A stretch of 64,000 nt of DNA, taken from contig JASTWF010000033.1 in assembly GCA_030390025.1 (NCBI GenBank), positions 3,660,001 through 3,724,000 on the forward strand, written 5' to 3'. The notes beneath the pieces are model-generated. The model worked only from the letters and a program-made list of their open reading frames with translations, had not been told where the DNA came from and made no database searches. The translations under genes were made by a program, and so were the position numbers. Shown here in pieces: positions 9,050-33,474 of the stretch. Position 1 is the stretch's first letter, and each line of letters opens with the position of its first letter. The DNA is from Squalus acanthias. Its lineage: Eukaryota.

Positions 9050-10881
9050 TCTCTATTTGATAAAACCAATTAAATAACTGTAACTCAGTAAAACTTTAAA
9101 GGAAACTTAACAAATCAAATTAAAATTTGGTAGTCCGGGGTGGCGATGCACTCCAGTCCCCACGGCGCCCACTGGTCGCAGAAAAACTCAAGCATGCCGG
9201 CGGACACCGCGTGCTCCATCTCCAGGGCCACCCGGGCGCGAACATGGCCGCGGAAGAGAGGCAGGCAATCGGGCCGAACGACCCCCTCGACCGCCCGCAG
9301 CCTGGACCAATTAATGGCTTTCTTAGCCAGGCGCAGGAGCAGTCCCACGAGGACGTCCTCCGACCTGCCCGCTCCCCTCCGCACCGGGTGACCGTAGATC
9401 AGGAGCGTGGGGCTGAAGTGCAACCAGAAATTGAGGAGCAGCCCCTTCAGGTAATGAAAGAGGGGCTGCAACCTCTCACACTCTATATGTACGTGAAAAA
9501 CGGACTCCTCCAGGCCGCAGAAATGGCAAGCAGCCTGGGAGTCCGTAAACCTACTTATCAACCTACTGCACGGGACTGCTCCGTGCAACACCCTCCAGGC
9601 CTAGTCCCCAATAGAACAAGGGAAGACTCCCGCGTAGAGAGCCCTCCATTGGGGACCTTCGCCTCCGCCGGACGGCAACATGGTACGCCAAGGCGTGTCC
9701 GGACGGAAGACGAAGATGGCAAAGTGGAGAGTGTGCAGCAGCAGCCCGTACAGGAAAAACCTCCGTGCGGGTTGAAAGGGCACGGAGGGCATTTCTCCAA
9801 GAAGGCTCAAGTGGTGAGGCGGCGGCTCCCGAGGGAGGATTCGGGGCCGGGCGCCGATAAGGAATTCCGTCCGAATGGGGGTCAGCTCGGACGAGATCGC
9901 CCCACGTGCTTGAGCCTCCTCGATACAACGAGTGGAGTCGGGGCCCAATGCCACTTTTAGTGACTCGATGGCTTTGACCGCGAGCCGGACGTTGATCCAA
10001 CCCATGCGCCTTGCCAACTCCTCTGGCGCCATCCAGCCCGCTCCTCCGCCATCGAGCAGGTCCCCGACTCTAGTCAACTTACCGGGTGCAGCCCTGCCCT
10101 CCGCCAGCCGACTGAACCCGCGTTCGAGGAGCTGCGGATTCCTGATCAGCGGCTCCCGAAGGACGGGCACCGGTCCTGACGGGGGAGAACTGCGCCTGGA
10201 GGCGACTCTGTTCCAAACCCATAGCAGTTTCTGGTAGAAGACAGGCAGCTCCCGCAGGCTGGCACGCGTGCCGCCCACTCTCACAAACAGGAGCTGCGTG
10301 TCGTAATTGAGGCCGTACAGCTGGCGGAAGAAATACGTCGCCAGCGCACGCCACCTAGGAGGATTCTCCACGTACAGGTATCTCTGCAGCGTCTGAAGAC
10401 AGAAAGTCGCCGCCTGGGTGCGAAGGCACACCAGCGCCTGACCGCCCTCCCTAAGCGGGAGACTCAGAACCGCGGCAGAGACCCAGTGCTTCCTTTTGTC
10501 CCAGAAGAAGTCGAAGAGCTTCTTCTGTATCTTGGCGACAAACGCAGGGGGAGGGATCAAAGTGACCAACCGGTACCACAACATGGCGGCCACCAGCTGG
10601 TTTATGACCAGCGCTCGACCCCTGTAGGACAACACTCGGAGCAGTCCCGTCCAGCGCCCTAGGCGATCGGTGACTTTGGCCTCCAGCACTTGCCAGTTCG
10701 CCGGCCAGGCGTCCTCGGCCGGGCTGAGGTAGACTCCCAGGTAGAGGAGGTGCGTTGTGCTCGAGGCGAAGGGCCTGAACTCCTCCGGCAGGGAGTCCAC
10801 CTGCCATGGGCCCACCAGGTGTCCAGAACATTTCTCCCAGTTGATCTTGGCGGAGGATGCGTCCGAGTAAATCTGCTGGCA
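9050..10881 (-). mobile_element. 5'-truncated Tx1-clade (L1 group) non-LTR retrotransposon with 14-bp TSD
   Basis: ORFs 9601-10815 and 9115-9591 are in frame (one stop): YLGVYL, LSYRGRALVINQL, LPLREGGQAL and a C-terminal CHFC..ESVFHVHIEC zinc finger. TSD GTTTTACTCTTCTT at 9036-9049 and 10882-10895. Confidence 0.88.
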
Positions 10882-12862: not shown

Positions 12863-15762
12863 GTGTCAGGAAGGGACAGAAGATATGGAGTAAAAGGTAA
12901 AGTAATAAAAAGGGCAAAAGCAGGAACTAAGTGTCACAAAACATTTTTGAAAGTTCTCTATCTGAATGCACGTAGCATTCGTAACAAAATAGACGAGTTA
13001 ATGGCACAAATAAGTACATATGGGTATGATCTTGTGGCCATTACAGAAACATGACTGTAGCGTGACACTGCCTGGGAATTAAACATACCAGGTTATTTAA
13101 CGATCAGGAAGGACAGGCAGGAAGGAAGGGGAGGTGGGGTGGCTATGTTAATAAAGGAAGGAATCACTGTAATACAGAGAAATGATATTGGGTCAAAAGA
13201 TCAGGATAATGAAACAGTTTGGGTGGAGATAAGGAATAATAAGGGGAAAACAACACTAGTGGGCGTAGTCTATAGGCCTCCGAATAGTTGCAACTCTGTT
13301 GGACGGAGTATCAATCAGGAAATAGAAGAGGCTTGTAATAAGGGAACATCTATAATTATGGGGGATTTTAACGATCATATTAATTGGGCAAATCAAATTG
13401 GGCAGGGCTGCCTTGAGGATGAGTTCATTGACTGTATTGGGGATGGGTTTCTTGAGCAGTATGTAACTGAAGCGACCAGGTGGCAAGCAACCTTAGATCT
13501 GGTCCTGAGTAACGAGACAGGATTAATTAAAAATGTCGTAGTAAAGGATCCCCTTGGAATGAGTGACCATAACATTGTTGAATTCCATATTCAATTAGAG
13601 GGTGAGAAGGTTGGATCTCAAACAAGCGTGCTAAGCTTGAATAAAGAGACTATGAAGGTATGCGAGCGGAATTGAATAGAGTGGCTTGGGAAAATAGACT
13701 AAAGGGTAAGACGATACATGATCAGTGGTGTACATTTAAGGAGTTATTTTACAACTTCCAAAAAATATATATTCCACTGAGAAGAAAAGGGTGTAAAAGA
13801 AAAGACAGTCATCCGTGGCTAAGTAAAGAAATTAAGGATAGTATTCGAATAAAAACAAGGTCTTATAAGGAAGCCAAATCTAGTGGGAGGATAGAGGATT
13901 GGGAAAACTTTAAAAGACAGCAAAAAATAACAAAAAGATTGATTAAGAAAGGGAAGATAGATTATGAAAGTAAATTAGCAAAAAATATAAAAACAGATAG
14001 TAAGAGTTTTTATAGTTATATAAAAAGAAAAAAGGGTGGCTAAAGTAAATGTTGGTCTCTTAGAGGATGAGACCAGGAAATTAATGGTGGGAAATATGGA
14101 GATGGCAAATACACTGAATGAATATTTTGTATCAGTCTTTACAGTAGAGGACACTAAGAATATCCCAACACTGGACAAACAGGGGGCTATAGGGGGGGGG
14201 GGGGAGGAGCTAAACACGATCAAAATCACTAAGGAAGAGGTACTCGGTAAAATAATGGGACTCAAGGCGGATAAATCACCTGGACCTGATGGCTTACATT
14301 CTAGGGTCTTGAGGGAAGAGGCGGTAGGGATTGTGGATGCATTGGTAATCATTTTCCTAAACTCCCTGGATTCAGCAAAGATCCCGGCAGACTGGAAAAC
14401 TGCTAATGTAACACCCTTATTTAAAAAGGGCAGTAGACAGAAGGTTGGAAAATATAGACTGGTTAGCCTAACATCTGTGGTAGGTAAAATTTTGGAGTCC
14501 ATTATTAAGGAGACAGTAACGGGACATTTGGATAATCATAATTTAATAGGACAAAGTCAGCGTGGTTTTATGAAGGGGAAGTCATGTTTGACAAATTTGC
14601 TGTATTTCTTTGAGGAAGTAACACACAGGGTGGATAAAGGGGAACCGGTGGATGTGGTATATTTAGACTTCCAAAAGGCATTTGACAAGGTGCCACACAA
14701 AAGATTATTGCTTAAGATAAAAAATCACTGGATTGGGGGTAATATTCTGGCATGGATAGAGGTTTGGCTATCTAACAGAAGGCAGAGAGTTGGAATAAAT
14801 GGTTCATTCTCGGACTGGCAACCAGTTGCCAGTGGTGTTACGCAGGGGTCGGTGCTTGGTCCCCAACTCTTTACAATCTATATTAACGATTTGGAGGAGG
14901 GGACCGAGTGTAACATATCAAAGTTTGCAGATGATACATAGATGGGAGGGAAAGTAGTTAGTGAGGAGGACATAAACAATCTGCAAGGGGACATAGACAC
15001 GCTAAGTAAGTGGGCAGAGATTTGGCAGATGGAATACAATACTGGAAAGTGTGAGGTTATGCACTTTGGCAGGAAAAATAGTAGAGCAAGTTATTATCGA
15101 AATGGCAAGAAACTGGAATGTACTGAAGTACAAAGGGATCTGCGGGTCCTGGTGCACGAAACTCAAAAGGTTAGTATTTAGGTGCAGCAAGTGATTAAGA
15201 AGGCCAATGGAATGTTGGCTTTCATTGCTAAGGGGATAGAATATAAAAATAGGGAGATATTGCTGCAGTTGTACAAGGTATTGGTGAGACCGCACCTTGA
15301 ATACTGCATACAGTTTTGGTGTCCATAATTAAGAAAAGACATACTTGCTCTCGAGTCAGTACAAAGAAGGTTCACTCGGTTAATCCCGGGGATGAGGGGA
15401 TGGACATATGAGGAGAGGTTGGGTAGATTGGGACTCTACACATTGGAGTTAGAAGAATGAGAGGCGATCTTAATGAAACATATAAGATTGTGAAGGGGTT
15501 GGATCGGGTGGATGCGGGGAGGATGTTCCTGATGATGGGTGAAACTAGAACTAGGTGGCATAGTCTTAGAATAAGGGGCTGCTCTTTCAAAACTGAGATG
15601 AGAAGGAACTACTTCACTCAGAGGGTGGTAGGTCCATGGAATATGCTGCCCCCAAAAGCTGTAGAAGCTACATCATTACATAAATTTAAAACAGAAATTG
15701 ACAGTTTCCTAGAAGTAAAGGGAATTAAGGGTTACGGGGAGCGGGCAGGAATTTGGACATGA
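12863..15762 (+). pseudogene. CR1 ORF2 (APE + RT), disrupted
   Basis: [35 protein letters not shown] and TRWHSLRI across several broken ORFs. Confidence 0.92.
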
Positions 15763-15891
15763 GTCTAGGTTCGGAACGGTCGTGGCCCTGTGGGTAGCGT
15801 AGCGGGCCCAGGGGTCGTGTAGCCTGATCCTGCTCCTATTTCGTATGTCCAATTCTGTTAGGTTCAGGAGATGGTTCTGTGATAGTAGATT

Positions 15892-17559
15892 TGTACGGGG
15901 GCCTGTCTCAGACGGTGCTGGTGCGAGGTTAGGCCTTCGTTGCCTAATACTATTGCTTGCTCTGATCTCCGGCCAGCCTTTTTGCAATAAGCACCTGTGA
16001 GTGGTTCGACCCACTCGCCCTTACGGTTCTAACACTGGACTTGGGTGCAAGGAGCAGTAATGCAGAGAAAACTCAAATAGAACCGGTTGAATAGTACGAA
16101 ATGGAAATCTTTATTGCATGGCGTCTAAAATCAGGAAGTACATGTCATAGGCACAAATCAACGAGAGTACAAGTATACATACATTCATAAAGCTTGGTCT
16201 ATGGAAATGAAAAACACACGGCACATCGTAAAAAGGGGAACACATTATACCTTAACCTTATTAAAAACCACCCTCCCTTAACAACATCTACACTACGTCT
16301 AGATTTGTAGGATCGGAAAACACACTCACCACTCGTGTTACTTCGGAGATTTTTAAAGTGAGGCACTCAACTCGTTTCGCTGCAGCGCTGACTGTCACGT
16401 GTTTGGTAGGGTCTCTGCACCCCACTTGTTTACTTTCGCTGCTGCGAAAAGCAGGCCAGACTCTCTGTTGTCATGAAGAACTCGGCAGAACTCGGAACGT
16501 TTGTAAAATTCAAAGAAGAGTCTTCCTGTGCGCGATACAGGTTGTAGTCGGTAGAACTCAAAGAAGAGTTCTTTATTTATATTTTCGGGCGCGGTCGGGG
16601 TTTACTGACCGTAGCGGCACGTGGATTCTTCTCGTCTTCTTCTCGTCTCGTCTCTTCGGGCCTCCGGGTCCAGACACCGTTTACTGACACTCGGGATGGT
16701 GTACCCTGTTACTTGCCCTTGTCGGGGCGGCTCGTTCCGATTGAGCTCCACCCAACATTCGAATAACCGACCAGTACGGCTAAGAGTCAAGAGTCAACAA
16801 AGTCCAGAGAAACACAAAGTCCAGCCCTAAGGAAGAGCTTCAGCAAGAGTCCGCCGAGAGATAAGAGCCAGCCGGGAGAATAAGAGTTCAGCAGACAGCA
16901 GCGAGATAAGAGACCGATGGACATTTGTTCTCTATAGTTATAGTGATGTGTCCCCTTATCTCCCGCTCAAATCTTAATGTTTGTCCTTTGTGTAATATTG
17001 GCGCACAAAACTTCCAGCAGGGGGCGATTCTTTTCTTTAACGGGTTTCGGTAGCACCTGAAACTGGCCAACTATCAGTTAATGTCTTCCCCATTGTTGAA
17101 CCAGCCAGGATGTGTATGAATCGTCTCCCTGACTGGTTTTGGGCCCTCCCCGAATACGGACTTAATCACCCGTCAATGTCTCTCTCATTGTAGAGCCGTG
17201 GGGGTATTTGTGAATTGATGTGTCTGGATGGGCCTTCAATTGCCCAGTACAATGATCCTTACTGTGCATAGGAAAACGATTCCAGCACTTATATCTTTGC
17301 TATTGTTCCAAATGCAAACGGGTTGCATCCTGTCTTTATCAGTGTTTACCGAGTATGATCCAATCTTATTCTGAATGTTTATTCGACGCCATCTTGTCTG
17401 CCCACTGTATTTCCGGAAGCTTCTGCCACAATGCGCGGCTGCCATTTTACAGGCTTCTGTGTCCTTTATTATCAGGACAGCATTTTGTTTAATAAAACTG
17501 ATCAAACGAATCTGCTTCTCTCTTGTTATTTTGAATCGCGATAATTGCGACACTGTACA
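15892..17559 (-). repeat. 3' LTR (1668 bp)
   Basis: Termini TGTAC..GTACA; colinear with 31703-33371. Minus-strand AATAAA at 16110-16115 and TATAAATA at ~16574-16581. Confidence 0.95.
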
Positions 17560-17572
17560 GTCCCTCCTGTTG
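17560..17572 (-). other. Polypurine tract
   Basis: Minus strand reads AACAGGAGGGAC immediately before the TG of the 3' LTR. Confidence 0.7.
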
Positions 17573-17953
17573 ATGCGAATAACTCCGCTTATTGTATCAA
17601 TTAAAAATGGTGTTGAGCAAAATTATCCCGATTCTCCACATCCAAACACTCCCGGTACTTAAACTATCTGTGGCCTCCATGCAGTCCTCATTTCCCAGTG
17701 AAATTACATTGTCTAAACTTGGATAAATCGTAGGCAGCATTGCCTTTAAACTTACACTGCGTATACGCCTTCCAGGTGCAAAAGACCGATGCCTCTCGCA
17801 CCACCTGTATATGCATGTTTTATTATAAAAGGAAAAATAATCAAACCAACTGCTTTAAAAATACAAAAGTTCCAAACTTAGTTACACATACTCATAACTA
17901 ACAACAACTACAAAAACACACATGGTAAAATGGAGCGGCGTCATTCTGGCCGT

Positions 17954-20309
17954 TTACGCGGTACTTTCCTCGTTCACGCGCACGTAACGTACTCTCCACT
18001 CCCCTGTGTTCTCCTGCCTCGTGAGGCGTTTGCCTCTTTTGCAGTGTACGGACAATAGGTACACTACAATCACAACTTGACACACTACCAAAATGTGGGA
18101 GGCTATCCTTATCCATGACGGGACTTCAATATTAATGAACAGATCCCACCACGGTGGGATTACTATGTTCAGTATCTCTGTCCCTATCTCTACAGTCTTT
18201 TGTTCCAGGGTGTAAAAATGTTTCTGTGATACCATGACGGCTTTTAAAATCTTGGTGAGGTGTTCAGGGAGAGGGGGAATAATGTATCCGAAATGCGCGA
18301 CGAATCGCTGCAAGTCTGTGAAATTCTCTTTTACAGTGAGGTGAACAGTGGATGGTTCAGGGATCGGGACAATTCGCTATTGTGCCACTTGAACTTCAGC
18401 CCTGAATTTAAAACAGAAATTGCTGTCACTCACCAGACACCGGCTGTGGTGTCCATGCTGGTAGTGTTGCGCTGCAGTGGCAACGCAATACGTTCCACCC
18501 CCCATGTATGCCACCTGTGGGGGCACATGATCTTGTGTCATTGCTTCCATGGTGCAATTCATGGGCTTCGCGCCAGCCGTTCTGAACCCGCATTGTGGTG
18601 TTAAAAAGGCATTCAAGTGCTGGGGACACAGTATGATGTGTGCTCCCCGGCCACGACAACCCGAAAGGTTGGTACCTGTCATCGTTTGCTCCAAGCGGAT
18701 GACGTAAGGTGGGACCGCTGCATAGCGAATGTGGGCTCCCCCCTGAATGACACCAATGTTCTCCACTCGATAAACCGGGGCGGGCTTTGCTGTGTCGCCC
18801 AACACCGGCAACCGTACTACTATCCCCGTGATAGTATGATTTGACCGTCTGCAGTCCACGGTGACTGGGTATGCCTCTGAGGCTAGCCTGAGCTGGCACG
18901 GGCTTAATGCGTTCTGAAAAGTGTGGAGCGCCTGCAGGTGTTTGTTACTTATCCAGGACGGGACCAAACCTTGTTTTAAATCCTCCAAATTACTGCGGCC
19001 CTCGCCCAGTAACCACGCCCCATATAGTACGCACACCTCGTTCTGCGCAGCTTGATCGGATGCATTCTGATCTTCCCTGATCAGGGCATTTACCGTTCTC
19101 GCATGCTTCTCCAGCTCTGCTACAATCTCTTTTAAGTGTAGTGTCATGGCCTTGTCCTCATGTAACTCAGACCCTACTACGTTCTCGTTTGTGAGGATGC
19201 TTTTTAACTGTGTTTTTAAACCGTTGATCTGGGTCTGCAGCTCCACATTGTCTAGAGCATTGACCACAGATGTTCCCGTATTAAAAGCAGTGAACACATC
19301 GTTCACAACATCCCTTCTTTGTCTCCCCACCTGACCCAAAACTTCGTGTGGTGTGGTGTATAAGCTTGTTTTGTCAACCTCTGCAAAAGCAAACTCATAG
19401 AATTGCCTGAACATGTTTGTTAACAGGACCTGGTACAATTGTTCCATTTCTTTGGGACACCACTCTGGTAATTGCACCTCGGTGAGATTTAGATTCAACG
19501 AAGCCACCGCGTAATGTACCCCTTGATATAGTATCTGATCTGTTGGCACCAGTACCAGACCATTCCCGGGCCCCTTAGTGGTTTTAGGGCACCCTTCCTC
19601 CTGAGCCAAAACCACCGGAATCGTGGGCGGAGACTTGCGTGGGCACGTGATGAGTTCAGTGGCGTTTACCGGGATCGGGGAGAATGGAGCTCCGCACCCC
19701 CTGGTGCTGACATCCCACCTCATCCCTTTCCCGTCATACTGCCGCTGTTGCAGGAAAAATATGGATATACACTTGGGGCAAACGTACTTCGATCCCCACA
19801 TACAAACATATATTCCCTCATCCGGTTCCCACCATTTGTCCCAACAGACTTTCAATTGTCCGTTAGTCCCCGTAATTGTCCGATGGGTATTGTTACCCAA
19901 TCGCTCCCACTCGACCGAGGAATTTCTCATAGTCTTGCTTAACTTCCATAACCACCACCTTCGGCTCAATGGGACCTTCCCATTGCTCGTCAAACAAATC
20001 CTTTTTGCCGACGGTGACGGTGACGCTGATTCTGGGTGCAATGATCCTCACCCTGGGACACAGTAAAGAAGTATCTTTGTAGGCAAATCCGGATGCGCTG
20101 GAGTATTCCGTCGAATTCGTTCCCAGCCATCCCGGCCACCTTCCCTTGTGGAAATAAGTGGCGGTTTCCTCAGCCTTTCGCTCCCCGGTCCCATCCGTCG
20201 CGATGGGGCCCGTGTCCCCGGAGCAACCGAACACAACGACATCCTTGGTGAGGCCCCGATAGGCCAATTCATATCCGATCGTTGCGAGAACTATCAGAAT
20301 CCGTTCCAT
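17954..20309 (-). pseudogene. env: Envelope glycoprotein, class I F-type fusogen; one frameshift, two in-frame stops
   Basis: Signal-like MERILIVLATIG at 20309. ORFs 20048-20272, 18377-20041 and 17954-18313 share one frame. Furin site RQRR at 19313-19324, then fusion-peptide/heptad region, Cys-rich domain, several N-x-S/T sites and TM segment IASHILVVCQVVIVVYLLSV. Confidence 0.88.
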
Positions 20310-20861
20310 CTTTCCTGTTTCAGTGATCAGATAAAATGATGTCGCCAGCCTCCCAAGAGTCTTTGGCTTTTGTGAAGGGTGAGCGGGTCCCTTTACCTCG
20401 TCTCACGTACAAAGACACGTATGCTGGATAGACCTTAACTATTCCTATCACTAACTCCCATCATTTTACCATTTACTTTTAAAATTAAACTACAATCTTA
20501 CCAAACTTAAAACACTATAAACTTAAACTTATCCTAAACTTAACTGTACAGCGCCGCCCGTTCCCAGGGCGGCCTACCTAAATTCTGCGAAGGCTGCCAG
20601 GAGCTTTTCCCAGTGGCGGGGGTGCACTGACCCCATCCATTGATCTGCCGCAGCCTGTCGTCGCTGCGCTGGGACTGGGATCTCCCTGGGCTACCTTGAA
20701 CTTACGCCTGGGGATGTACGAGGGATTTGACCACAACTTCCTGGGCTGGGGTGTCCGACTCGACCTACGGAGGGCTACCTTGGGCAAGATTTCCAGGACC
20801 GACGGATCGGGAACCGAGACTTCCACCGTCACGGCCTGTGGTCCCACCACAGCCGCCGGCT

Positions 20862-21307
20862 CTGTCTCCCCTGGCTCCGCCCCCTGGGCTCGGGACCTGC
20901 GGTTTCTGACTCCACCCTACTTGTCTCTCCAGTATGTGGAACTCAACTCACAGTCCCTATCTCCCCTGGCCCCGCCCCCCTGGCCCCGCCCCCTGGGCTC
21001 GGGAGCTGTGGTTTCTGACTCCACCCTCCTTGTCTCTCCAGTATGTGGATCTCCACTCACAGTCCCTGTCTCCCCTGGCCCCGCCCCCTGGGCTCGGGAT
21101 CTGTGGTTTCTGACTCCACCCTACTTGTCTCTCCAGTATGTGGAACTCCACTCACAATCCCTGTCTCCCCTGGCTCCGCCCCCTGGCCCCGCCCCCTGGC
21201 CCCGCCCCCCTGGCCCCGCCCCCTGGGCTCGGGATCTGCAGTTTCTGACTCCACCCTACTTGTCTCTCCAGTATGTTGAACTCCACTCGCAGTCCCTGTC
21301 TCCCCTG
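20862..21307. repeat. Tandem array between integrase and env: 4 units of a 95-bp core with variable GC-box subrepeats
   Basis: Units start at 20862, 20957, 21066 and 21161 (95, 109, 95 and 135 bp) and carry 1, 2, 1 and 4 copies of TGGC(C/T)CCGCCCCC. Confidence 0.93.
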
Positions 21308-24200
21308 AGCTTGGGTCGAGGGCGGAACCTCCGTCCTCCGCCCCCACCACCTCTCCGACCGGGTCACTACCTTGGTCGAGCTCTCCGAGCTCTTCCTCAT
21401 CTGAATCCCAACACCAAGAAAAGATCCTACACTTTTCCAGAATGTCCTCTCCCCTCAAGCAGGCTGCTTTACCGGCCTGTGTGCCCTGCGGTTCTACCTG
21501 GGGCTGAGAGTCCCCACTCGCAGGTTTGGCCCCTGTGATTGGCCCCTGTGCACCCGGCTTGTACAGCTTGCACTGGTTAATGTGGAACCATTTCGTGCGC
21601 CGGTGTACCTTCACGGCATACACCATGGGACTCGCCTTATCTACAATACTGTGGGGTCCCATATACAGTGGTTCCAAACTCCCTACTCTGGCATAGTTCC
21701 TAACCATGACCTGATCTCCGACTTCACACTTACGGAGTTCCAGCAACAGTCGATTGCCCTGATGCTGTCTTCCCATGTTCCCAGCCGCCTGCTCGTAAAC
21801 CTGCTTCGGGCGCTCCGAGAGGGTCTGGTCAAACTTGTCCCTTTTCACCTCTTGGAGCTGACCTCAGTGAGCACCGGGGCTAGTACATGGGTGGGGGTTC
21901 GCATGAACCTCCCAGTCATCACCTCGTACGGGGAATACCCCGTACTCTTCGACTGGCTGGCCCGGATTTCCATGAGGACTAGAGGCAGAACCTCCGCCCA
22001 TTTTTGGGGTGAGTTCATAGTCTCTTTCCTCAGTTTCTCCTTGAGGGTCCGGTTCATGCGTTCAACAATCCCTGATGACTGGGGATTGTGCGCTACGTGC
22101 CACTTCCCTTCAATGCCCAAAAGCATGAGGGTGTTCTGCATCACCTGTCCGGTGAAATGACTCCCTTGGTCTGACTCCACGAAACGGGGGAGTCCCCACC
22201 GCGAAAACACTTCCCGAACCAAGATCTTGGTAGTACCCAGCGCCGTAGCTGTTCTACAGGGGAAGTCTTCTACCCACTTGGAAAACACATCCACCAAGAC
22301 GAGGCAGTATTTGTAGCCTCCTTGGGTGGTGGGCAGGGGCCCTGTGTAATCGATCTGTCTCGACTGCCATGGTCCCTCCACCCTCCTGATGTGCCCCATG
22401 TGCACTTTCCTTTTCTGGGGGTCTGGGTTGTTTGCAGCGCACACAAGACAGCTTGCACAGAACTCGCGGACCTGCTCCCTGAGTACCGGCCACCAGCCGG
22501 CCTGCTCTACCCGTTGCCAGGTAACCTCAGGCCCGGGGTGTCCTGCCCCCGGCCCCTCATGAGCCAACTGGAGGAATTCCCTCCTGTGCTGCTGCGGCAC
22601 AACCAACTGTTCCTCACGGAACAGCATGCCTTCTTTAACGGAGAGTGTTGCCGTACTGTACGGGCCCTCTACCTGCTTGCCCTCAGTAATCGTTTTGAGA
22701 ACTGCTTTTAGGGCGGGATCCTGGTTCTGGACGGTCTTAAGGTCTAGGGGCAGTGCTACCCTGGTGTTCCCGGTATTCCCTTCCCTGCCTTGGATCGCTG
22801 CCACGGGTCCGGGTCCATAGGGGTCCCAGAAAATGCCGTTACGGGCACCCTCACTGGCTAGCGCATCCGCCTGCTGGTTGCCCTCCCCGCGGGGTTCTGT
22901 GGAGGAGTGAGCCTTCACCTTATGGATGAAAATCTCCCCTTCCTCCCCCACTGCTGCTAGGATCTTTTCCAGCAAGGGCTTCACCGTTAAAGGTCGCCCG
23001 TCCGCGGAGGTGTAGCCAAGGCGGGACCAAATGGCCAGGTAATCCGTACACGAATTGCACGTAAACATACTGTCCGAACAAATCGTGTATGGGGTTGGGA
23101 AGATCTTTGGGTGGGTAACTACGTACGCCACCGCAGACAGCTCAGCATGCTGCACGCTCATCGTGCTGGGGAGTTTAATTGCCAATGCAAGGTTTGCCGC
23201 AGGGTCATAAACTCCACATTCTGTGAGTCGTTCGCCAGCGGACACTGTGCTGGAACCATCAACATAAATCTCGCGGCCTGTGGGATGTATCCCGGCCCGC
23301 AAACCTATGTTGACCTCCCACACCCCTTCCACCAAACACTGGTGGGCTGTTCCGGGGTATACCAGGTTGGCCGTGAGCCTGGGCTCGCAAAGACCTTTAA
23401 CTCTAAGATCCATCTGGGAAAGGAGAAGGGTCCAACGCGCAATACTAGTGCTGCTTACGGTCCCATCCTTAATCCTCCCATCCAGAAGCATCTTGGTTGG
23501 TGTGTGATGGGTGAGGAGAGTGATGGGAGAGAGCCCTGTGAAATTCGCTGATCTTTTCACAGCCCAATGCGTGGCTAAAAGATGCCTTTCGCAGTTGGAA
23601 AAACTCCTATCCACATCCGTTAACACCCTGGACGTATAGACAACCGGCCTCAGTTTGCCGTGACGCTCTTGGAGCAGCACAGCGCTCAAGCTGTCTCCGC
23701 TGGCAACTACCTCCAGGAAAAACTCCTCCCCCCGTCTATGGCCCCTAAAGCTGGCGCGGTCTGCAAATCCCCTTTTAACTTCTCGAATGCTGCCTGACAG
23801 CCCTCGTCCCAAGACCACTCCACTCCCTTATGGAGGAGTCGGAGCAGCGGAGCTGCTGTCGCCGCATAGTCCTCGATAAAGTCTCTACAGTATCCGGTCA
23901 GGCCCAGAAAGGACCTCACACCCGTTATGGTGTTGGGAATCGGTAACTCCTGCACCGACTCCCTCCTAGCCTTATCTATGGCTCTTTCCCCAGCGCGAAT
24001 GGTCAGACCCAGGAATTTTACTTCCTGCTGACCGATCCGTGCTTTCTTAGGGTTAACTTTAAAACCCTTTCTCGCTAGCAGCTCCAATAACTCGGCTAGC
24101 AGTGGTCCATGCTCCTCCCTTGAGTCCGTGACCAGGAGCAAATCATCCACGTACTGCACTATCTGATTGGGCTGACTAAACTCCTTTAAACTTCCTGCCA
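21057..24200 (-). pseudogene. pol: pol 3' part: RT palm/thumb, degenerate RNase H tether, RNase H, integrase with GPY/F tail
   Basis: YVDD at 24142-24153; VRSFLGLTGY; LEVVAS..YTSR..CERHLLA (degenerate RH); YVDGS..AEL..SDS..VKAH..GNQQAD (second RH); HHCC, IDYTGPLP, SDQGSHF, SGIVERMN; LYMGPHSI. Confidence 0.93.
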
Positions 24201-27200
24201 GGGAACCTGAGCAGGGAGACCGAGGAAAGCATGTCAGGAAGGGACAGAAGGTATGGAGTAAAAGGTAAAGTGTTAAATAAGGAAAAAGCAAGAAGTAAGT
24301 GTCGCAAAACACATTTGAAAGTTCTTTATCTGAATGCACGTAGCATTCGTAACAAAATTGACGAGTTAACGGCACAAATAACTATGTATGGGTATGATCT
24401 TGTGGCCATTACAGAAACATGGCTGCAGGGTGACAACGTCTGGGAATTAAATATGCCAGGGTATTTAAAAATCAGGAAGGACAGGCAGGAAGGAAGGGGA
24501 GGGGGGTGGCTATGCTAATAAATAAAGGAATCACTGTAATACAGAGAAATGATATTGGGTCAAAAGATCAGGATAATGAAACAGTTTGGAAACAGATAAG
24601 GATTAATAAGGGGAAAAAAACACTGGTGGGCGTAGTATATAGGCCTCCTAATAGTTGCAACTCTGTTGGAAGAAGTATTAATCAAGAAATAGTTGGGGCA
24701 TGTAATAAGGGAACAGCTATAATTATGGGGGATTTTAACTATCATATTAACTGGACAAATCAAATTGGGCAGGGCAGCCTTGAGGAAGAGTTTATTGAGT
24801 GTCTTCGGGATGGATTTCTTGAGCAGTATGAAGGGGGCAAGCAACCTTGGACCTGGTACTATGCAACGAGTCTGGATTAATTAATAATGTCCTAGTTAAG
24901 GATCCCCTTGGAATGAGTGACCATAACATGGTTGAATTCCATATCCAATTAGAGGGTGAGAAGGTTGGTTCTCAAACAAGCATACTGAGCTTGAATAAAG
25001 GAGACTATGATGGCATGAGAGCAGAATTGATTAAAGTGGACTGAGAAAATAGATCAAAGGGTAAGACGGTACATGAGCAGTGGTGTTCATTCAAGGAGTT
25101 GTTTTACAGCTTTCAAAATAAATATATTCCATGTGAGGAAAAAAGGGTGTAAAAGAAATGACAGCCATCCATGGCTAAGTAAAGAAATTAAATAAATTAT
25201 CCAAATAAAAAACAAGGACATATAAGGTAGCCAAAGTTAGTGGGAGGATAGAAGATTGGGAAGTCTTCAAAAGACAACAAAAGGTAACTAAAGGATTGAT
25301 TAAGAAAGGGAAAATAGACTATGAAAATAAATTAGCAAAAAATATAAAAACAGATAGCAAGAGTTTCTATAGTTATATTAAAAGGAAAAGGGTGGTTAAG
25401 GCAAACGTAGGTCCCTTAGAGGATGAGACCGGGAAATGAATGGTGGGAAACATGGAGATGGCAAAAATGCTGAACAAATATTTGGTTTCAGTCTTTACGG
25501 TAGAGGAGACTAAGAATATTCCAACACTGGACAAACAGTTGGCTCTAGTGGGGAGGAGCTAAATACGATTAAAATCACTAAGGAATTGGTACTCAGTAAA
25601 GTAATGAGACTCAAGGCGGATAAATCCCCTGGACCTGATGCCTGACATCCTAGGGTCTTGAGGGAAGTGGCAGTAGGAATTGTGGATGCTTTGGTAATAA
25701 TTTTCCAAAACTCCCTGAACTCAGCAAAGGTCCCGGCAGATTGGAAAACTGCTAATGTAACACCCTTATTTTAAAAGGGTTGTAGGCAGAAGGCTGGAAA
25801 TTATAGAGCAGTTAGCCGAACATCTGTGGTGGGTAAAATTTTGGAGTCTATTATTAAGGAGACAGTAACGGAACATTTAGATAAACATAATTTAATAGGA
25901 CAAAGTCAGCATGGCTTTATGAAGGGGAAGTCATGTCTGACAAATTTGCTCGAGTTCTTTGAGGACATAACGTACAGGGTGGATAAAGGGGAACCAGTGG
26001 ATGTAGTGTATTTAGACTTCCAGAAGGCATTCGACAAGGTGCCACATAAAATATTATTATTCAAGATAAAAAATCACTGGATTGGGAGTAATATTCTGGC
26101 ATTGGTGGAGGATTGGTTATCTAACAGGAAGCAGAGAGTTGGGATAAATGGTTCATTCTCGGACTGGCAACCAGTAGCCAGTGGTGTTCCGCAGGGGTCG
26201 GTGCTGGGTCCCCAACTCTTTACAATCTATATTAACTATTTGGAGGAGGGGACCGAGTGTAACATATCAAAGTTTGCAGATGATACAAAGGGAGGAAAAG
26301 TAGAGAGTGAGTAGGACAAAAAAAAACTACAAGGGGATATAGACAGGCTGGGTGAGTGGGCAGAGATTTGGCAGATGCAATACAATATTGGAAAATGTGA
26401 GGTTATGCACTTTGGCAGGAAAAATCAAAGAGCAAGTTATTATTTTAACGGCGTGAAACTGGAAAGTACTGCAGTACAAACTGATCTGGGGGTCGTGGTG
26501 CAAAAAAATCAAAAAGTTAGTATGCAGGTGCAGCAGGTTATCAAGAAAGCCAATGGAATGTTGGCTTTTATTGCTGGGGGATAGAATATAAAAACAGGCA
26601 TGTATTGCTGCAGTTGTATAGGGTATTGGTGAGACCGCACCTGGAGTACTGCATACAGTTTTGGTGTCCATACTTAAGAAAATACATACTTGCTCTCGAG
26701 GCAGTACAAAGAAGGTTCACTCGGTTAATTCCGGGGATGAGGGGGTGGACATACGAGGAGAGCTTTAAGAGATTGGGACTCTACTCATTGGAGTTCAGAA
26801 GAATGAGAGGCGATCTTATTGAAACATGAAAGATTGTGAAGGGGCGTGATCGGGTGGGCGCGGTGAGGATGTTCCCAATGATGGGTGAAACTAGAACTAG
26901 GGGACATAATCTTAAAATAAGGGGCTCCTCTTTCAAAACTGAGATGAGGAGAAACTTTTTCAATCAGAGGTTAGTGGGTCTGTGGAATTTGCTACCCCAT
27001 GAAGCTGTGGAAGCTACTTCATTAAATAAATTTAAAACAGAAATAGACCGTTTCCTAGAAGTAAAGGGAACCGGGGTTACGGGGAGCGGGCTGGAAATTG
27101 GACATGAGTTTGAGTTCGGATCGGTCAAGGCCCTGTGGGTGGCGGAGCGGGCCCAGGGGCCGAGTGGCCTGGTCCTGCTTCTAATTCTTGTGTTCTTTAG

Positions 27201-27298
27201 AGTTGAGGTTGGATCAGATCAGCCATGATCTCATTGAATGGCGGAGCAGGCTCGATGGGCCGATTGGTCTACTCCTGCTCCTATTTCTTATGTTCTTA
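24201..27298 (+). mobile_element. 5'-truncated CR1 inserted in the proviral RT
   Basis: APE+RT remnants and a double tail. Excising it restores SPSIFHQC-MAGSLKEF exactly (no TSD). Confidence 0.92.
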
Positions 27299-27840
27299 TA
27301 CACTGATGGAAAATACTGGGGCTGTTGTCAAAACCCTGTGGCAAACAGTTCCATGTGTACTGTTGTCCTTTATAAGTAAAGACAAACTTGTACTGGTCCT
27401 CTCGCCGCAGCGGGATGGACCAAAAACCGTTCGAGATATCCAGCACCGTGAACGTGGTCGCGGACGCTGGGATGCTCCCTATTAGGTCAGCAACTGCTGC
27501 TACTGTGGGCGCGCAGGCCGGGATGTTACTGTTAAGGACTCTGTAGTCCACCGTGGCCCTCCACGAATTATCCAGCTTCCTTACCGGCCATAATGGGGAG
27601 TTCACGTGTGTGGCTATCGGCCTCAACACGCCCTGCTGCACCAATGAGGACATTGCTGTCTCCAAATCGGGTTCTGCTTCTTTGGTGAAGTTATACTGCT
27701 TTTGGGGCCGGATCATGGGGTCCCCGTCTATGCTGACCTCAAACCCGGTAACCCTCCCACAATCGTGCTTGTGGGTTGCAAACGCGTGCATATTATCTGA
27801 CACGTACGTTTGCATGTCCGTTGGGACATCTGCGACCATA
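27299..27840 (-). pseudogene. pol: pol: N-terminal half of the reverse transcriptase
   Basis: PQKQY, NSPLWPVRK, WRATVDYRVLN, LDISNGFWSIPL, LPQGFDNSPSIF. Confidence 0.93.
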
Positions 27841-29416
27841 AGCCTGAGGGTCGATAAGTCCCCTGGGCCAGATGGGATATATCCTAGGATTCTTTGGGAG
27901 GCAAGGGAGGAGATTGCAGAGCCTCTGGCTTTGATCTTTGGGTCCTCACTGTCCACGGGAATGGTGCCAGAGGACTGGTGAGTGGCGAATGTTGTTCCTC
28001 TCTTCAAGAAAGGAAATAGGAATGACCCTGGTAATTATAGGCCGGTTAGTCTTACTTCGGTGGTTGGTAAGATAATGGAAAAGGTCCTGAGGGATAGGAT
28101 TTATGACCATTAGGAAAGGGGCAACTTAATCAGGGATAGTCAACACGGATTCGTGAAGGGTAAGTCCTGCCTAACAAATTTGATTGAATTCTTTGAGGAG
28201 GTAACTAAGTGTGTAGATGAAGGTAGAGCAGTTGATGTCGTATACATGGATTTTAGTAAGGCGTTTGATAAGGTTCCCCATGGTCGGCTCATGAAGAAAG
28301 TAAGGAGTTGTGGGATAGAGGGAAATTTGGCCGATTGGATAAGTAACTGGCTATCTCATAGAAGGCAGAGGGTGGTGGTGGATGGAACATTTTCGGACTG
28401 GAGACCAGTTACCAGCGGTGTGCCACAGGGGTCGGTGCTGGGTCCTCTGCTGTTTGTGATTTTTATCAATGACTTGGAGGAGGGGACTGAAGGGTGGATC
28501 AGTAAATTTGCTGATGACACCAAGATTGGTGGAGCAGTGGATGAGGTGGAGGGCTGTTGTAGGCTGCAAACAGACATTGATAGGATGCAGAGCTGGGCCG
28601 AAAAATGGCAGATGGAATTTAACCCTGATAAGTGCGAGGTGATTCATTTTGGTAGGGCAAAAATGAATAAGGATTACAGGGTCAACGGCAGGGTTCTGAG
28701 GAACGTTGAGGAAGAGCGGGATCTGGGGGTTCATATCCACAGATCTCTGAAGGTTGCCACTCAAGTGGATAGAGCAGTAAAGAAGGCCTATGGTGTGTTG
28801 GCGTTTATTAACAGAGGTTTTGAGTTTAAGAACCGTGAGGTTATGCTGCAACTGTACAGGACCTTGGTGATACCACATTTGGAATATTGTGTGCAGTTCT
28901 GGTCACCTCACTATAGGAAGGACGTGGAAGCATTGGAAAGAGTGCAAAGGAGATTTACCAGGATGCTGCCTGGTTTGGGGGGGAGGTCTTATGAAGAAAG
29001 ATTGAGGGAGTTGGGGCTTTTCTCTTTAGAGCGGAGGAGGATGAGAGGCGAATTAATAAAGGTTTATAAGATGATGAGGGGGATAGATAGAGTGGATGTT
29101 CAGAGACTATTTCCTCGGGTAGAGGCAGCTGTTACAAGGGGGCATAACTATAAGGTGCATGGGGGGAGATATAGAAGGGATGTCCGAGGTAGATTCTTTA
29201 CTCAGAGAGTGGTTGGGGTGTGGAATGGACTGCCTGCTGTGATAGTGGAGTCAGACACTTTAGGAACTTTCAAGCGGTTATTGGATAAGCACATGGAGCA
29301 CACCAGAGTGATAGGGAGTGTGATAGCTTGATCTTGGTCTCGGACAATGCTGGGCACAACATCGAGGGCCGAAGTGCCTGTACTGTGCTGTACTGTTCTA
29401 TGTTCTATGTTCTATG
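27841..29416 (+). mobile_element. 5'-truncated CR1 (second subfamily) inserted between protease and RT
   Basis: ORF 28153-29331 (YMDFSKAFD, FADD, TRGHNYK) and a (TGTTCTA)n tail ending ~29416. Confidence 0.92.
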
Positions 29417-29880
29417 TAACCTACGGATGGTTTCATGGTACACAGGGCCCCTTTACCTTCCTTCCCCGGGATTACAACTACCTTGCCTTTCCCACCCTTG
29501 GCTCCCCAGAGACAGTGATTCCTAAGGTCCACGAGGATCCCGTGTTCCGCTAGGAGATCCAATCCGAGGATACCTCTGCCACCCCCCTCTTGCCATTTCA
29601 TCTGTATGCACTTCCACGCGGTGTGGAGTGCTCCTAAATGAATGGAGAGCGGAATGGAGAACGCGCCAGCCTGCTCTTTTCCCGTGAACCCTGCTAATGT
29701 GAATGGGACCTTGGTAGACAGTGGTGAGTCAAAGGGGCTATCCGTATGGATCACGGTGCATGAAGCTCCCGTTTCCAACAAGTAACTACATTTCTGCTTC
29801 TCTACCTCCATCTCCACCAGGGGTCTTTTCCACGCATCACAGCTGTGCGGACACAGGTAAACGGGCTGCGTGGGCTTTAG
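29417..29880 (-). pseudogene. pro: pol: aspartic protease
   Basis: YLLETGAS (DTG with D>E), LAGFTG flap and ILGLDLL; in frame with gag after a single TGA. Confidence 0.9.
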
Positions 29881-31698
29881 TCATTGGGTACTGGTGGACG
29901 GGGTTGTGGCATCTGTGGGGCCGGTAACGACTGCCACCCTCCCGTACGAAATCATAAGGGACCGCATGGCTCCCAACATTGATTCTATCGCATCGGGATG
30001 GATAGGAACACCAGCTCCTTTCTCAGAGACAGGCGCTTGGGTTCGGACTGCGGGAGCTTTGTCCCTGGAGTCCTTCCAGGGATTCCTGCAGTTTTTAAGC
30101 CAGTGACCTGTCTTCCCGCACCCGTAACAAACACCACTGGTTTGTGGGGCGCGATTTCCCTCCTGATGCCACTCTTTCTGACCCGGAGCTGCGGGCTTTG
30201 CCTCATGCACCTTTCCCTTAAGGGGACGCGCTCCCGTGCTCCTAGTGTTCCGATACCCTATGGTGAATCGATTCAGGACAGACTCCTCCGTTGTGGCGGG
30301 GTTAGTGGGATCAAACCACGCTGTGGCCTGCTCCCTGATGGCTGGCAAGCTGTTGGCTACAATGCACCTGAGCCAATGAGCTTTCCCGGCGCCGTCCAGG
30401 TAGTGGCGCGCTGGAGCACCTGGGCAGCTACGCTGGTAAACTGGCCACAGTCTGTCGGCGAAAACCCGCGGGGGTTCTCCCTCCATCTGTACGGTCTGAC
30501 CCAATCTGACGAACGGACCTTCGTCATCCGCCCCTAACACTTCTAGGACCTCGTCCCGTAACTCCGCATAGGTTTTATTTCCCTTCTTGCTCTCGTCGGA
30601 GAGACACTGAAGGATCGAGCTATCTAAAGTGAACAGCAACATTTTGGTCTTTTCCTCGTCGTCGCAGCCATTAATTGCTGCGGTCTGTTCTACTAAAATA
30701 TACGGAAGGGTCTACTGACTCGGACAGCTTCCGTACATGGCTAATCATTGCTCTCAGCTGGTGTGAGCTGTGGGGCAATACAAGTTGGTTCAGGATATCC
30801 CCGTCTGCCCCATTTGCCCCATTCGGGCCTCTCTTGTGACCTCGGAGCAGACACATCGGTCCCGGTCTCGACGCTACCTCCGGGGATTGTCCTACCTCGG
30901 GAACCTTCTTCTCTATTTCCACCACTTCCTCCCTTACCCAGGTTGCCGAATAGCTGGGTGGCGTGGAGGGCATAGTGGCAGATACCTCTTCTGCGTTTTC
31001 CGGTAGGGATCTTGAGAATTCCCTACCCACCTGTGGCTGGCTCGCTGACGGGCTGATGTGACACACCAAGCCGTTTGCCTTATTCAGGGCCTCTCTTAGG
31101 TTTCCTATCTCCTTCTGGCAAACACTGTGGTCGGCTCCCTCATGCCTATCCTCGAGAGCCATCTTGATGCCGCCCTAACTCCCTTCAAGCTTTCTTCCTG
31201 GGCTTGTATCTGGCTAGCTAGGCGGATACACCGTTCTCTAATCCTACCCTCGTTTAATTTTGCTTCCGTGACCTGACATTCGAGGTAATCAATTTTAGCC
31301 TCATGGTGGTTGGCTACTATTTGGCGTTCCTGATGTAACGCATTCAATGATGCAATGAGTTTCTGTCCTCCCGTGACCTTTTCCTCCATCTCAACTTCCA
31401 ATTCCCTGATCTGAGCTGCCTGTGCTGCAATGACCTGGTCCGAAAGTTGGACTTGCTTCTTGTAGCACATCAGCCAGACCGCTTTCTCTACCGACTTCTT
31501 ATGATCGTTACTGCCTGTCCATTTGATGGCGGTGTCTAGCGGACGCTTATCCATCAGTAGGTCACTTATCCACTTTTTGGTTAAGTTAACCTTCCCAAAC
31601 ACATAGTCAGCTACACTTTCATCCGTCACATTTCGCCTATTCAAACCAGGGTCTAAAACATTGCTCTCCTGCTGCCAGAGTCCTGCCGCGGTCGACAT
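29881..31698 (-). pseudogene. gag: gag (N-terminal coiled coil, capsid-like middle, one CCHC knuckle), two frameshifts
   Basis: ORFs 31105-31698, 30671-31162 and 29881-30642; Q..GEPPRVFADRL; CYGCGKTGHWLKNC at ~30088-30129. Confidence 0.88.
31678..31697 (-). other. Primer-binding site, tRNA-Arg(UCG) type
   Basis: Minus strand TGTCGACCGCGGCAGGACTC. It is complementary, with one mismatch in TGG, to the vertebrate tRNA-Arg(UCG) 3' end GAGUCCUGCCGCGGUCG-CCA as recalled from memory. Confidence 0.8.
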
Positions 31699-31702
31699 TT
31701 TC

Positions 31703-33371
31703 TGTAAGGGGGCGTGTCTCAGACGGTGCTGGTGCGAGGTTAGGCCTTCGTTGCCTAATACTATTGCTTGCTCTGGTCTCCGGCTCGCCTTTTTGCAATA
31801 AGCACCTGTGAGTGGTTCGACCCACTCGCCCTTATGGTTCTAACACTGGACTTAGGTGCAAGGAGCAGTAATGCAGAGAAAACTCAAATAGACCCCGTTG
31901 AATAGTACGAAATGGAAATCTTTATTGCATGGCGTCTAAAATCATGAAGTTCATGTCATAGGCGCAAATCAACGAGAGTACAAGTATACATACATTCATA
32001 AAGCTTGGTCTATGGTAATGAAGAACACATGGCACATCGTAAAAAGGGGAACACATTATACATTAACCTTATTAAAAACCACCCTCCCTTAACAATACCT
32101 ACACTACGTCTAGATTTGTCGGATCGGAAAACATGCTCACCACTCGTGTTACTTCAGAGATTTTTAAAGTGAGGCACTCAGCTCGTTTCGCTGCAGCGCC
32201 TGACTGTCACGTGTTTGGAAGGGTCTCTGCACCCCACTTGTTTACTTTCGCTGCTGCGAAAAGCAGGCCAGACTCCCTGTTGTCATGAAGAACTCGGCAG
32301 AACTCGGAACGTTTGATAAATTCAAAGAAGAGTCTTCCTGTGCTCGATACAGGCTGTAGTCGGTAGAACTCAAAGAAGAGTTCTTTATTTATATTTTCGG
32401 GCTCGGTCGGGGTTTACTGACCGTGGCGGCACGTGGATTCTGCTCGTCTTCTTCTCGTCTCGTCTCTTTGGGCCTCCGGGTCCAGACACCGTTTACCGAC
32501 ACTCGGGATGGTGTACCCTGTTACTTGCTCTTGTCGGGGCGGCTCGTTCCGATTGAGCTCCACCCAACATTCGAATAACCGACCAGTACAGCTAAGAGTC
32601 AAGAGTCAACAAACACCAGAGAAACACAGAGTCCAGCCCTAAGGAAGAGCTTCAGCAAGGGTCTGCCGAGAGATAAGAGCCAGCCGGGACAATAAGAGTT
32701 CAGCAGTCAGCAGCGAGATAAGAGACCGATGGACATTTGTTCTCTATAGTTATAGTGATGTCTCCCCTTACCTCCCGCTCAAATCTTAATGTTTGTCCTT
32801 TGTGTAATATTGGCGCACAAAACTCCCAGCATGGGGCGATTCTTTTCTTTAACGGGTTTCGGTAGCACCTGAAACTGGCCAACTATCCGTTAATGTCTTC
32901 CCCATTGTTGAACCAGCCAGGATGTGTATGAATCGTCTCCCTTACTGGTTTTGGGGCCTCCCCGAATACTGACTTAATCACCCGTCAATGTCTCTCTCAT
33001 TGTAGAGCCGTGGTGGTATTTGTGTATTAATGTGTCTGAATGGGCCTTCAATTGCCGAGTACAATGGTCCTTACTGTGCATTGGAAAACGATTCCAGCAC
33101 TTATATCTTTGCTATTGTTCCAAATGCAAACGGGTTGCATCCTGTCTTTATCAGTGTTTACCGAGTATGATCCAATCTTATACTGAATGTTTATTCGACG
33201 CCATCTTGTCTGCCCACTGTATTTCTGGAAGCTTCTGCCACGATGCGCGGCGGACATTTTACAGGCTTCTGTGTCCTTTATTATCAGGACTGCATTTCGT
33301 TTAATAAAACTGATCAAACGAATCTGCTTCTCTCTTGTTATTTTGAATCGCGATAATTGCGAAACTTTTCA
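31703..33371 (-). repeat. 5' LTR (1669 bp)
   Basis: Colinear with 15892-17559; TG..CA termini; about 12 substitutions in the first ~265 bp counted by eye. Confidence 0.95.
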
Positions 33372-33474
33372 GATTGGCGGTTAGGATCAGATCAGCCATT
33401 ATCTTATTGAATGGCGGAGCAGGCTCTAGGGGCCAATTTGCCCACTCCTGCTCCTATTTCTTATGTTATGTTCA
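33372..33474 (+). mobile_element. Displaced 3' tail of the CR1 at 11268-15891
   Basis: GATTGGCGGTTAGGATCAGATCAGCC.. matches the intact 3' UTR at ~43515-43618. Confidence 0.9.

Follow-up and report, generated by a model that had tools for sequence, protein, structure and literature searches.

A dead provirus in Squalus acanthias from a deep-branching retroviral family, probably of the foamy-like kind and probably not a lokiretrovirus

Background

To which retroviral lineage does the 17.5-kb provirus in one stretch of the Squalus acanthias genome belong, and has this lineage been seen before? The stretch, which we call the window, comprises 64,000 nucleotides (GenBank assembly GCA_030390025.1, contig JASTWF010000033.1, positions 3,660,001 to 3,724,000), and the provirus lies on its minus strand at 15892-33371. 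A sequence-only reading had taken the element for a complete, reconstructable member or new relative of the lokiretroviruses (Loki), and had suggested that a shark or ray member may be new.

Our answer differs. The provirus is real; its outline is complete, but in its details it is dead. The family to which it belongs occurs in sharks, rays, frogs and the coelacanth and branches deeply, at or near the base of the canonical retroviruses. It is probably not part of the lokiretrovirus clade in the published sense, and it is probably the lineage from which foamy-like endogenous retroviruses (FLERVs) of sharks and frogs have already been reported. Taken together, we put the probability at roughly 0.55 that a retrovirus once infected a cartilaginous fish and left this now dead copy in its germ line, and that its family is the shark and frog FLERV lineage, known from pol only until now, and not Loki.

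Phylogenetic position of the polymerase

Close relatives of the Pol and Env proteins were found in Heptranchias, Scyliorhinus, Pristiophorus, Rhinoraja, Mustelus, Chiloscyllium and Heterodontus. These relatives mark the host as a cartilaginous fish. Of the 8000 candidates scored for the reverse transcriptase (RT) region, 55 proteins had E <= 1e-5. Outside sharks, frog and coelacanth proteins come closest, with 47-50% identity, and the next tier consists of Pols of endogenous retroviruses (ERVs) from amphibians, birds, bats and salmonids (31-36%), followed by Ty3/gypsy elements. In the NCBI database, family members carry the name "NYNRIN-like".

As references for the trees we took 14 gamma-like or related, 16 foamy, 7 delta-like and one epsilon-like genome from IMG/VR. 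The group labels were assigned from genome length and from Pfam matches on Env and Gag. The epsilonretrovirus-like genome (L031, 12,708 nt) is presumably walleye dermal sarcoma virus. None of the trees contains Loki, Odin, CGIN1 or endogenous FLERV sequences of fishes and amphibians. A quick RT tree had 57 rows, including 22 of the 38 IMG/VR loci; for a careful RT tree 21 rows were dropped, leaving 36, of which 11 were Ty3/gypsy.

In the careful tree, the shark, frog and coelacanth family falls into a retroviral clade with full support (100/100), apart from Ty3/gypsy; in the quick tree the support, given by the Shimodaira-Hasegawa-like approximate likelihood ratio test (SH-aLRT), was 100. In both trees the family stands unresolved at the base of this clade, outside the group of foamy viruses and orthoretroviruses (94/96 in the careful tree), and the careful tree also excludes it from the orthoretroviral clade (100/99). 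The sequence-only reading had named nesting of the RT as the outcome that would speak against it; we find the family nested neither in the epsilon-, gamma- or exogenous foamy viruses nor in Ty3/gypsy. When the family and the foamy viruses were forced into one RT clade, the approximately unbiased (AU) test did not reject this topology (log-likelihood difference 2.17, p = 0.441).

The other pol domains tell different stories. In the tree of the second RNase H domain (27 rows), the family groups with the foamy viruses, on a long branch (SH-aLRT 99), apart from the gamma-like genomes and L031. In the integrase (IN) tree (40 rows, without the delta rows, whose coverage was short), the family (90) and the gamma/epsilon integrases (95) are sister groups. 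The family is thus a mosaic by domain: an RT outside foamy viruses plus orthoretroviruses, an RNase H of foamy type, an integrase next to gamma/epsilon and an Env of foamy/F type, which is described in the next section.

The envelope protein

The env gene occupies 17957-20309 on the minus strand, with the start MERILIV at 20309. The protein has an RQRR cleavage site (19313-19324), helical repeats and a beta-rich core, and its membrane anchor is encoded at 18047-18115. A profile search among 1.84 billion representatives gave 47 relatives at E <= 1e-3. Ten of them were looked up, and of the nine that could be named seven are chondrichthyan and two come from frogs (Pelodytes and Xenopus).

We wanted to know what kind of fusion protein this is. 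A structural model was calculated with AlphaFold2 from 39 sequences; its confidence is modest, with a mean predicted local distance difference test score (pLDDT) of 60.6 and values of 70-92 in the core. Foldseek found 136 matches in the PDB at E <= 1e-3, and among the rows listed all are F proteins of paramyxo- and pneumoviruses (best E value 5.1e-9). With VIA-align, four of 985 chains reached Z >= 8, namely the F proteins of human parainfluenza virus 3 (8.7), respiratory syncytial virus (8.2) and human metapneumovirus (8.2) and a prefusion foamy virus Env (8rm0_A, 8.1); these four are effectively tied, and the tool itself rates Z values of about 8 as middling. The earlier claim that the Env is related to the F proteins of Mononegavirales therefore holds at the level of the predicted fold.

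At the level of sequence profiles, the result was divided. Using hhalign, the Env profile aligned with that of 16 foamy Envs with a probability of 94.7% (E = 5.8e-8, 323 columns), over the cleavage site, the helical repeats as far as the second one and the beta core. The L031 Env (1229 aa) gave 94.9% (E = 4.4e-8, 333 columns), and eight gamma-type Envs, which served as a control, gave 0.65%. In an hmmsearch, the match between this Env and foamy Env had a domain E value of about 2e-4 in a small set. On the other hand, no Pfam family was reached by the two window Env pieces at E <= 10, including PF00523 (fusion glycoprotein F0), and 20 Env relatives matched neither PF00523 nor PF03408 (Foamy_virus_ENV) at E <= 1. 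One relative has a weak Baculo_F match (18.1 bits, cut-off 24.1). Profile searches of PDB sequences with two Env alignments found neither an F protein nor another viral glycoprotein, and an Atlas search with the Env gave no usable match.

In the report on the foamy Env gp130 structures 8RM0 and 8RM1, foamy Env and F have a core in common (PMC11468914). For this reason an Env of F type does not point to Loki specifically.

Several smaller observations concern the Env and its relatives. The surface part at 19700-20309 is beta-rich and poorly modelled (pLDDT 26-64). A relative from Chiloscyllium is named "Ig-like domain-containing", and another one (P0041) has a faint V-set match (E = 0.045). In Pristiophorus and Heterodontus, gene models (P0015, P0021 and P0042) join Env pieces to Niban-like, cadherin-related and fbxo15 genes of the host; they are probably chimeras that arose in the annotation of ERV fragments. 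In L031, the Env at 5962-9648 has no Pfam match, and judging from the profile alignment, a fusion subunit of F/foamy type may underlie the epsilonretrovirus Env as well. No sequencing run contained as many as half of the env words, and none of the runs with such words is recorded as RNA.

Relation to foamy-like endogenous retroviruses

Is this family new? Two reports on ERVs make that doubtful. In Aiewsakun and Katzourakis 2017 (PMC5512871), the frog element XtrFLERV clusters with the shark CmiFLERVs at the base of the foamy-like ERVs, with only pol detectable, and the supplement has a tip CoeEFV.2 beside CmiFLERV. In Song et al. 2023 (PMC10699275), Gag and Env domains were not detected in the catshark element ERV-Spuma.0-Sca. 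The hosts match those of our family: there are sharks, a frog of the genus Xenopus and, in the coelacanth, a second lineage. The position basal to the mammalian foamy viruses is also the same, and the RNase H and Env of our family are of foamy type in our tests. The difference lies in the genes seen: pol only in the Cmi and Xtr elements and no Gag or Env domains in the Sca element as described there, whereas here env is seen in full and gag codes for a CCHC knuckle. With these elements in print, the suggestion that a shark or ray member may be new is weakened.

The family also resembles the foamy viruses themselves. The Env fusion subunit agrees by profile and by fold, the RNase H domains cluster, and both have long LTRs (long terminal repeats) and a 4-bp target duplication. 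A J Virol paper of 2023 by Wang, Chen and Cui reportedly deals with endogenous foamy viruses of cartilaginous fishes.

However, a number of points weigh against assigning the family to the foamy-like lineage. Exogenous foamy viruses lack a Cys-His knuckle in Gag, have pol in a separate frame and carry accessory genes past env; the provirus has a CCHC knuckle, has gag and pol in one frame, and leaves no room for accessory genes in the approximately 400 nt past env, where there is no convincing open reading frame (ORF). In the best RT tree the family stays apart from the exogenous foamy viruses. The foamy integrases (6 rows) fall among the Ty3/gypsy rows and not with the family. The Foamy_virus_ENV model does not reach the window Env (E <= 10), and the fold comparison has the tie and the modest model confidence described above. 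In the N-terminal half of the RT, a rough count by eye gives 38-39% identity to Loki-Lch, to the L031-type RT and to simian foamy virus alike. Moreover, it is from the host pattern alone that we infer the identity of the window family with CmiFLERV and XtrFLERV, and since the trees contain no Loki sequences, the family may still be sister to Loki. As to the integrase, the endogenous foamy integrases of fishes form a group of their own according to Wang and Han (PMC7947760).

The same observations can be read as a third deep retroviral lineage, neither spumaretrovirus-like nor Loki, that has not been described as such. We regard this as the best placed of the alternatives, and still as unlikely. 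The domain mosaic across RT, RNase H and IN fits it, as do the combination of a CCHC Gag and a one-frame gag-pol with an Env of foamy/F type and the roughly equal distance of the RT from the Loki, foamy and epsilon-type RTs. However, FLERVs that show this host pattern have been published from sharks and frogs (PMC5512871), the long foamy branch in the trees is not broken up by endogenous sequences of fishes and amphibians, and the AU test does not reject a clade with the foamy viruses.

Relation to lokiretroviruses

The likeness to Loki, on which the sequence-only reading relied, extends to several features. As described by Wang and Han (PMC7947760), Loki elements have the order LTR-gag-pol-env, a tether and a second RNase H of foamy/Loki type, an Env of F fold with a furin-type site and, in some members, a coiled-coil before Gag; here the N-terminal coiled-coil of Gag resembles the Spc7/SMC part of Loki-Xtr. 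The Loki RT also stands below the canonical retroviruses, as our family does with respect to all those sampled, and its RNase H groups with that of foamy viruses. In addition, the integrase of Loki is reported near CGIN1, and members of our family are named after NYNRIN. The retroviral arrangement of a tether plus a second RNase H is indeed present in the window, with both domains matched by Pfam. Since this arrangement is common to foamy-like lineages, it is not specific to Loki.

The differences start with the RT motifs. The printed RT sequences of Loki-Lch, Loki-Xla and Loki-Xtr read PFGY, YVDDIL and NYSR (supplement of PMC7947760), whereas the shark, frog and coelacanth family has LPQGF, QYVDDLLL and G[YF]CR, like canonical retroviruses. 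PQG was recorded in the window row, in five of the seven other family rows (once as VPQGF) and in 22 of 22 exogenous isolates; the remaining family rows P0063 and P0065 read LPQGL, and in the partial row P0066 the motif pattern had no match. In Ty3/gypsy the motif is PFG in the nine rows where it was caught.

Furthermore, Xenopus tropicalis and Latimeria also hold published Loki elements (PMC7947760). The Xenopus member (P0063) and the Latimeria members (P0004 and P0066) of our family clearly differ from Loki-Xtr and Loki-Lch, so that the Loki consensus sequences published for these two hosts represent separate elements. In Fig. S1 of Wang and Han (PMC7947760), Loki was found in none of six chondrichthyan genomes (genomes and hits: Carcharhiniformes 1/0, Orectolobiformes 3/0, Rajiformes 1/0, Chimaeriformes 1/0), though Chiloscyllium carries a relative of the window Env. 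The papers on Loki, Odin and Troyka nowhere use the words "shark", "cartilaginous" or "Chondrichthyes" in their main texts, and the accessible portion of the literature that mentions Loki holds no report of it in Chondrichthyes. We also searched the supplements of PMC7947760 and PMC5512871 for peptide motifs from the window and from P0004 and P0063 and did not find them, where the XtrFLERV and CmiFLERV sequences themselves lie outside the text searched.

With these motifs, the separate Loki elements in the same hosts, the published absence from six chondrichthyan genomes and the missing PF00523 match, membership of the lokiretroviruses as published is not borne out. That the family is a lokiretrovirus, or a sister of the Loki clade which would extend it to cartilaginous fishes, seems to us rather improbable.

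Class I and Ty3/gypsy elements

An epsilon- or gamma-like (class I) ERV with an unusual env would account for the integrase as sister of gamma/epsilon IN, for the in-frame stop between gag and pol, for the single CCHC knuckle, for the motifs G[YF]CR and QYVDDLLL, which are common to the gamma and epsilon groups, and for the profile match with the L031 Env. L031 itself shares one CCHC knuckle in Gag, a large Env that has no Pfam match and aligns with the shark Env, and a neighbouring IN clade; on the other hand, its RT and RNase H cluster elsewhere and it has extra ORFs. The exclusion of the family from the orthoretroviral RT clade and the grouping of its RNase H with that of foamy viruses, away from gamma and L031, leave this reading with very little probability. 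A Ty3/gypsy (errantivirus-like) retrotransposon with an F-type env has next to none: an Atlas search with Gag does lead to Retrotrans_gag/Ty3_capsid clusters (score 0.95), and the best single PDB score for Pol is that of a Ty3 Gag-Pol chain (232.5 bits, compared with 229.6 for the RT of xenotropic murine leukemia virus-related virus), but the RT lies in the retroviral clade against the 11 Ty3/gypsy rows, and the element has the PQG motif and a PF00075 RNase H in addition to the tether. Both of these readings were rejected on the careful RT tree.

Implications

As a single copy, the provirus is an ordinary dead ERV, and the family is of more use. Placed near the retroviral root, it unites a knuckle-bearing Gag and a one-frame gag-pol, as in gamma- and epsilonretroviruses, with two features of foamy viruses and Loki, namely the RNase H and the fusogen of F type. 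It bears on the origin of retroviral envelopes and on how frequently pol domains were swapped. If the match with the L031 Env holds, the F-type fusogen would be far commoner among basal retroviruses than current family models show.

A more far-reaching and doubtful idea is that the family forms a deep lineage of its own, which branched off before foamy viruses and orthoretroviruses separated and which belongs neither to Loki nor to the spumaviruses proper. If this is true, the fusogen of paramyxovirus F type would be the ancestral retroviral envelope, since the Env profile matches both foamy and epsilonretrovirus-like Env and the Loki Env is F-like; the gamma-type Env would have replaced it later.

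Boundaries and age of the provirus

The provirus is bounded by a pair of direct repeats at 15892-17559 and 31703-33371, which we identify as the LTRs (blastn: 1664 nt, 95.97% identity, one gap). In the orientation of the element, both of them begin with TG and end with CA. The long retroviral ORFs are all on the minus strand, therefore the repeat at 31703-33371 (1669 nt) is the 5' LTR and the one at 15892-17559 (1668 nt) the 3' LTR. They are flanked by a target-site duplication AATC, which was read directly, with the upstream copy (in element orientation) at 33372-33375 and the downstream copy, after the 3' LTR, at 15888-15891. The paired 1.67-kb LTRs and the 4-bp duplication described earlier are hence supported by blastn, by a MAFFT alignment and by the reading of the flanks.

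A candidate polypurine tract can likewise be read: a purine-rich AACAGGAGGGAC at 17560-17571 (minus strand) lies immediately 5' of the 3' LTR. The primer-binding site is no more than a candidate. The 5' LTR is followed by GAAA and then by the ATG of the gag frame; the candidate 18-mer at 31680-31697 (minus strand), 5 nt past the LTR, starts with TGT instead of TGG and overlaps this first gag ATG (31696-31698).

In the MAFFT alignment, the LTRs differ at 68 of 1668 aligned positions (Kimura two-parameter distance, K2P, 0.042). For the elephant shark, Han used a rate of 2.2e-10 (PMC4422223). With this rate the K2P value corresponds to an integration about 95 million years ago, and with faster rates to about 10-30 million years. 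The age of the copy is thus roughly 10-95 million years, depending on the rate assumed. The 68 differences consist of 31 transitions and 37 transversions, and only 11 of them fit CpG decay; such an excess of transversions is unusual under neutral decay.

Gag and pol genes

The gag gene lies at 29884-31698 (minus strand) in three overlapping frames (31698-31108, 31174-30674 and 30711-29884). It encodes an N-terminal coiled-coil-like part, a part resembling capsid (CA) and one CCHC knuckle at 30085-30132, for which the zf-CCHC match is borderline (E = 6.4e-4; 20.1 bits, cut-off 20.8). For the gag N-terminus and env, Pfam at E <= 10 gave only weak coiled-coil families at chance level. In a BLASTP comparison of the piece from CA to nucleocapsid with the L031 Gag, nothing matched beyond the knuckle.

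Between gag and pro-pol there is a TGA in the same frame (29881-29883, minus strand; context TGA CTA). The 100 nt past this codon have ordinary RNA folding stability (z = 0.60), i.e. no read-through structure was seen by this simple test.

The pol domains follow on the minus strand. The protease at 29416-29880 (RVP, E = 1.8e-4) has the motif ETGAS, with Glu at the position of the catalytic Asp, where the 84-90% identical relative P0001 has DTGAS. The RT is split into a linker plus N-terminal part (fingers and palm, up to FHQCI) at 27297-27849 (RVT_1, E = 1.6e-14) and a C-terminal part with QYVDDLLL at 23710-24199 (RVT_1, E = 2.1e-12). The tether at 23414-23728 has a Ty3-type RNase H fold (RT_RNaseH, E = 3.4e-16). 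RNases H of this type have the motifs DAS and TDH; here we read VAS and THH, so that the catalytic positions are lost and this first RNase H fold is a degenerate tether. In the second RNase H at 22844-23272 (PF00075, E = 1.3e-17), the D, E, D and D positions are present.

The integrase at 21060-22600 comprises an HHCC zinc domain (22424-22600; Integrase_H2C2, E = 1.1e-16) and a core (22082-22369; rve, E = 7.2e-15). After a frame change near 21.86 kb it continues into a C-terminal part with a GPH motif of GPY/F type. The single Gag knuckle (borderline), protease, YVDD-type RT, two RNase H folds and integrase that had been read from the letters are accordingly all recovered by Pfam, the RT in two pieces.

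Tandem repeats of 95-131 nt are located at the end of pol (20862-21331). Three to four copies of this unit lie in the C-terminal pol frame and encode a Gly/Arg/Pro-rich repeat.

Insertions and damage

Two CR1-like elements interrupt pol on the plus strand. Insertion 1 (24200-27297, 3098 nt) holds remnants of an endonuclease and an RT (Exo_endo_phos_2 and RVT_1); insertion 2 (27850-29415, borders good to about 3 nt) is 5'-truncated (RVT_1, E = 4.4e-28) and has an uninterrupted RT ORF of 405 aa at 28114-29331 (plus strand). With their non-LTR retrotransposon domains and ATTCTRTG-like 3' tails, both insertions are as had been described, but their borders are shifted with respect to the earlier 24201-27298 and 27841-29416. 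Subtracting them leaves 12,816 nt, in agreement with the genome of about 12.8 kb that had been estimated.

We checked the junctions in contigs from four public sequencing runs, which represent three coded organisms. Position 24199 was joined exactly to 27298 in all four runs (nine contigs; 1, 4, 3 and 1 per run). Insertion 2 was bridged by two contigs, and loose ends matching at 27849 and 29416 were found in addition. Since contigs join across both sites, there are other copies of the virus that do not have these insertions.

Even so, and contrary to what had been proposed, removing the two CR1-like elements does not restore the virus. In addition to the three gag frames and the ETGAS protease, pol has frame changes near 23.7-23.8 kb and near 21.86 kb, and env has a frame change near 20.0 kb and an in-frame TAG (18377-18379) at a position where its relatives have a residue. 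Because of these defects, a reconstruction by CR1 removal alone is too optimistic.

Another CR1-like copy lies outside the provirus at 14030-15848, with its 3' tail stopping just short of the LTR, by a few bases. Its identity to the copy inserted in the RT (25386-27193) is 85-93%. With copies both outside and inside the provirus, this CR1 family was active before and after the integration, or at least around that time.

Proposed life cycle

From this anatomy and from established retrovirology, a life cycle of the intact element can be proposed. The 1.67-kb LTRs would provide the promoter and polyadenylation signals, and Gag, with its coiled-coil N-terminus, CA-like core and single CCHC knuckle, would be translated from the genomic RNA. 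The protease, RT, tether, RNase H and integrase would probably arise by read-through of the in-frame TGA, a mechanism known from gamma- and epsilonretroviruses, and the integrase would generate the 4-bp duplication as foamy and gamma integrases do. Env would be a furin-cleaved (RQRR) class I fusogen with a core common to paramyxo- and pneumovirus F and foamy Env, carrying a large N-terminal surface part ahead of the fusion subunit. After the integration, the copy received the two CR1-like elements, several frame changes and a stop.

Other features of the window

No Rfam family was found over the 64-kb window. Two tandem arrays lie outside the provirus. An 80-bp repeat occurs in 9.3 copies (89% matches) at 7047-7773, and an 18-bp satellite with the unit GGGGGTTTGACCAGTCCC extends from 45593 to 63983, at the window end, in about 1018 copies (81% matches), with a GC content near 65% and a strong skew.

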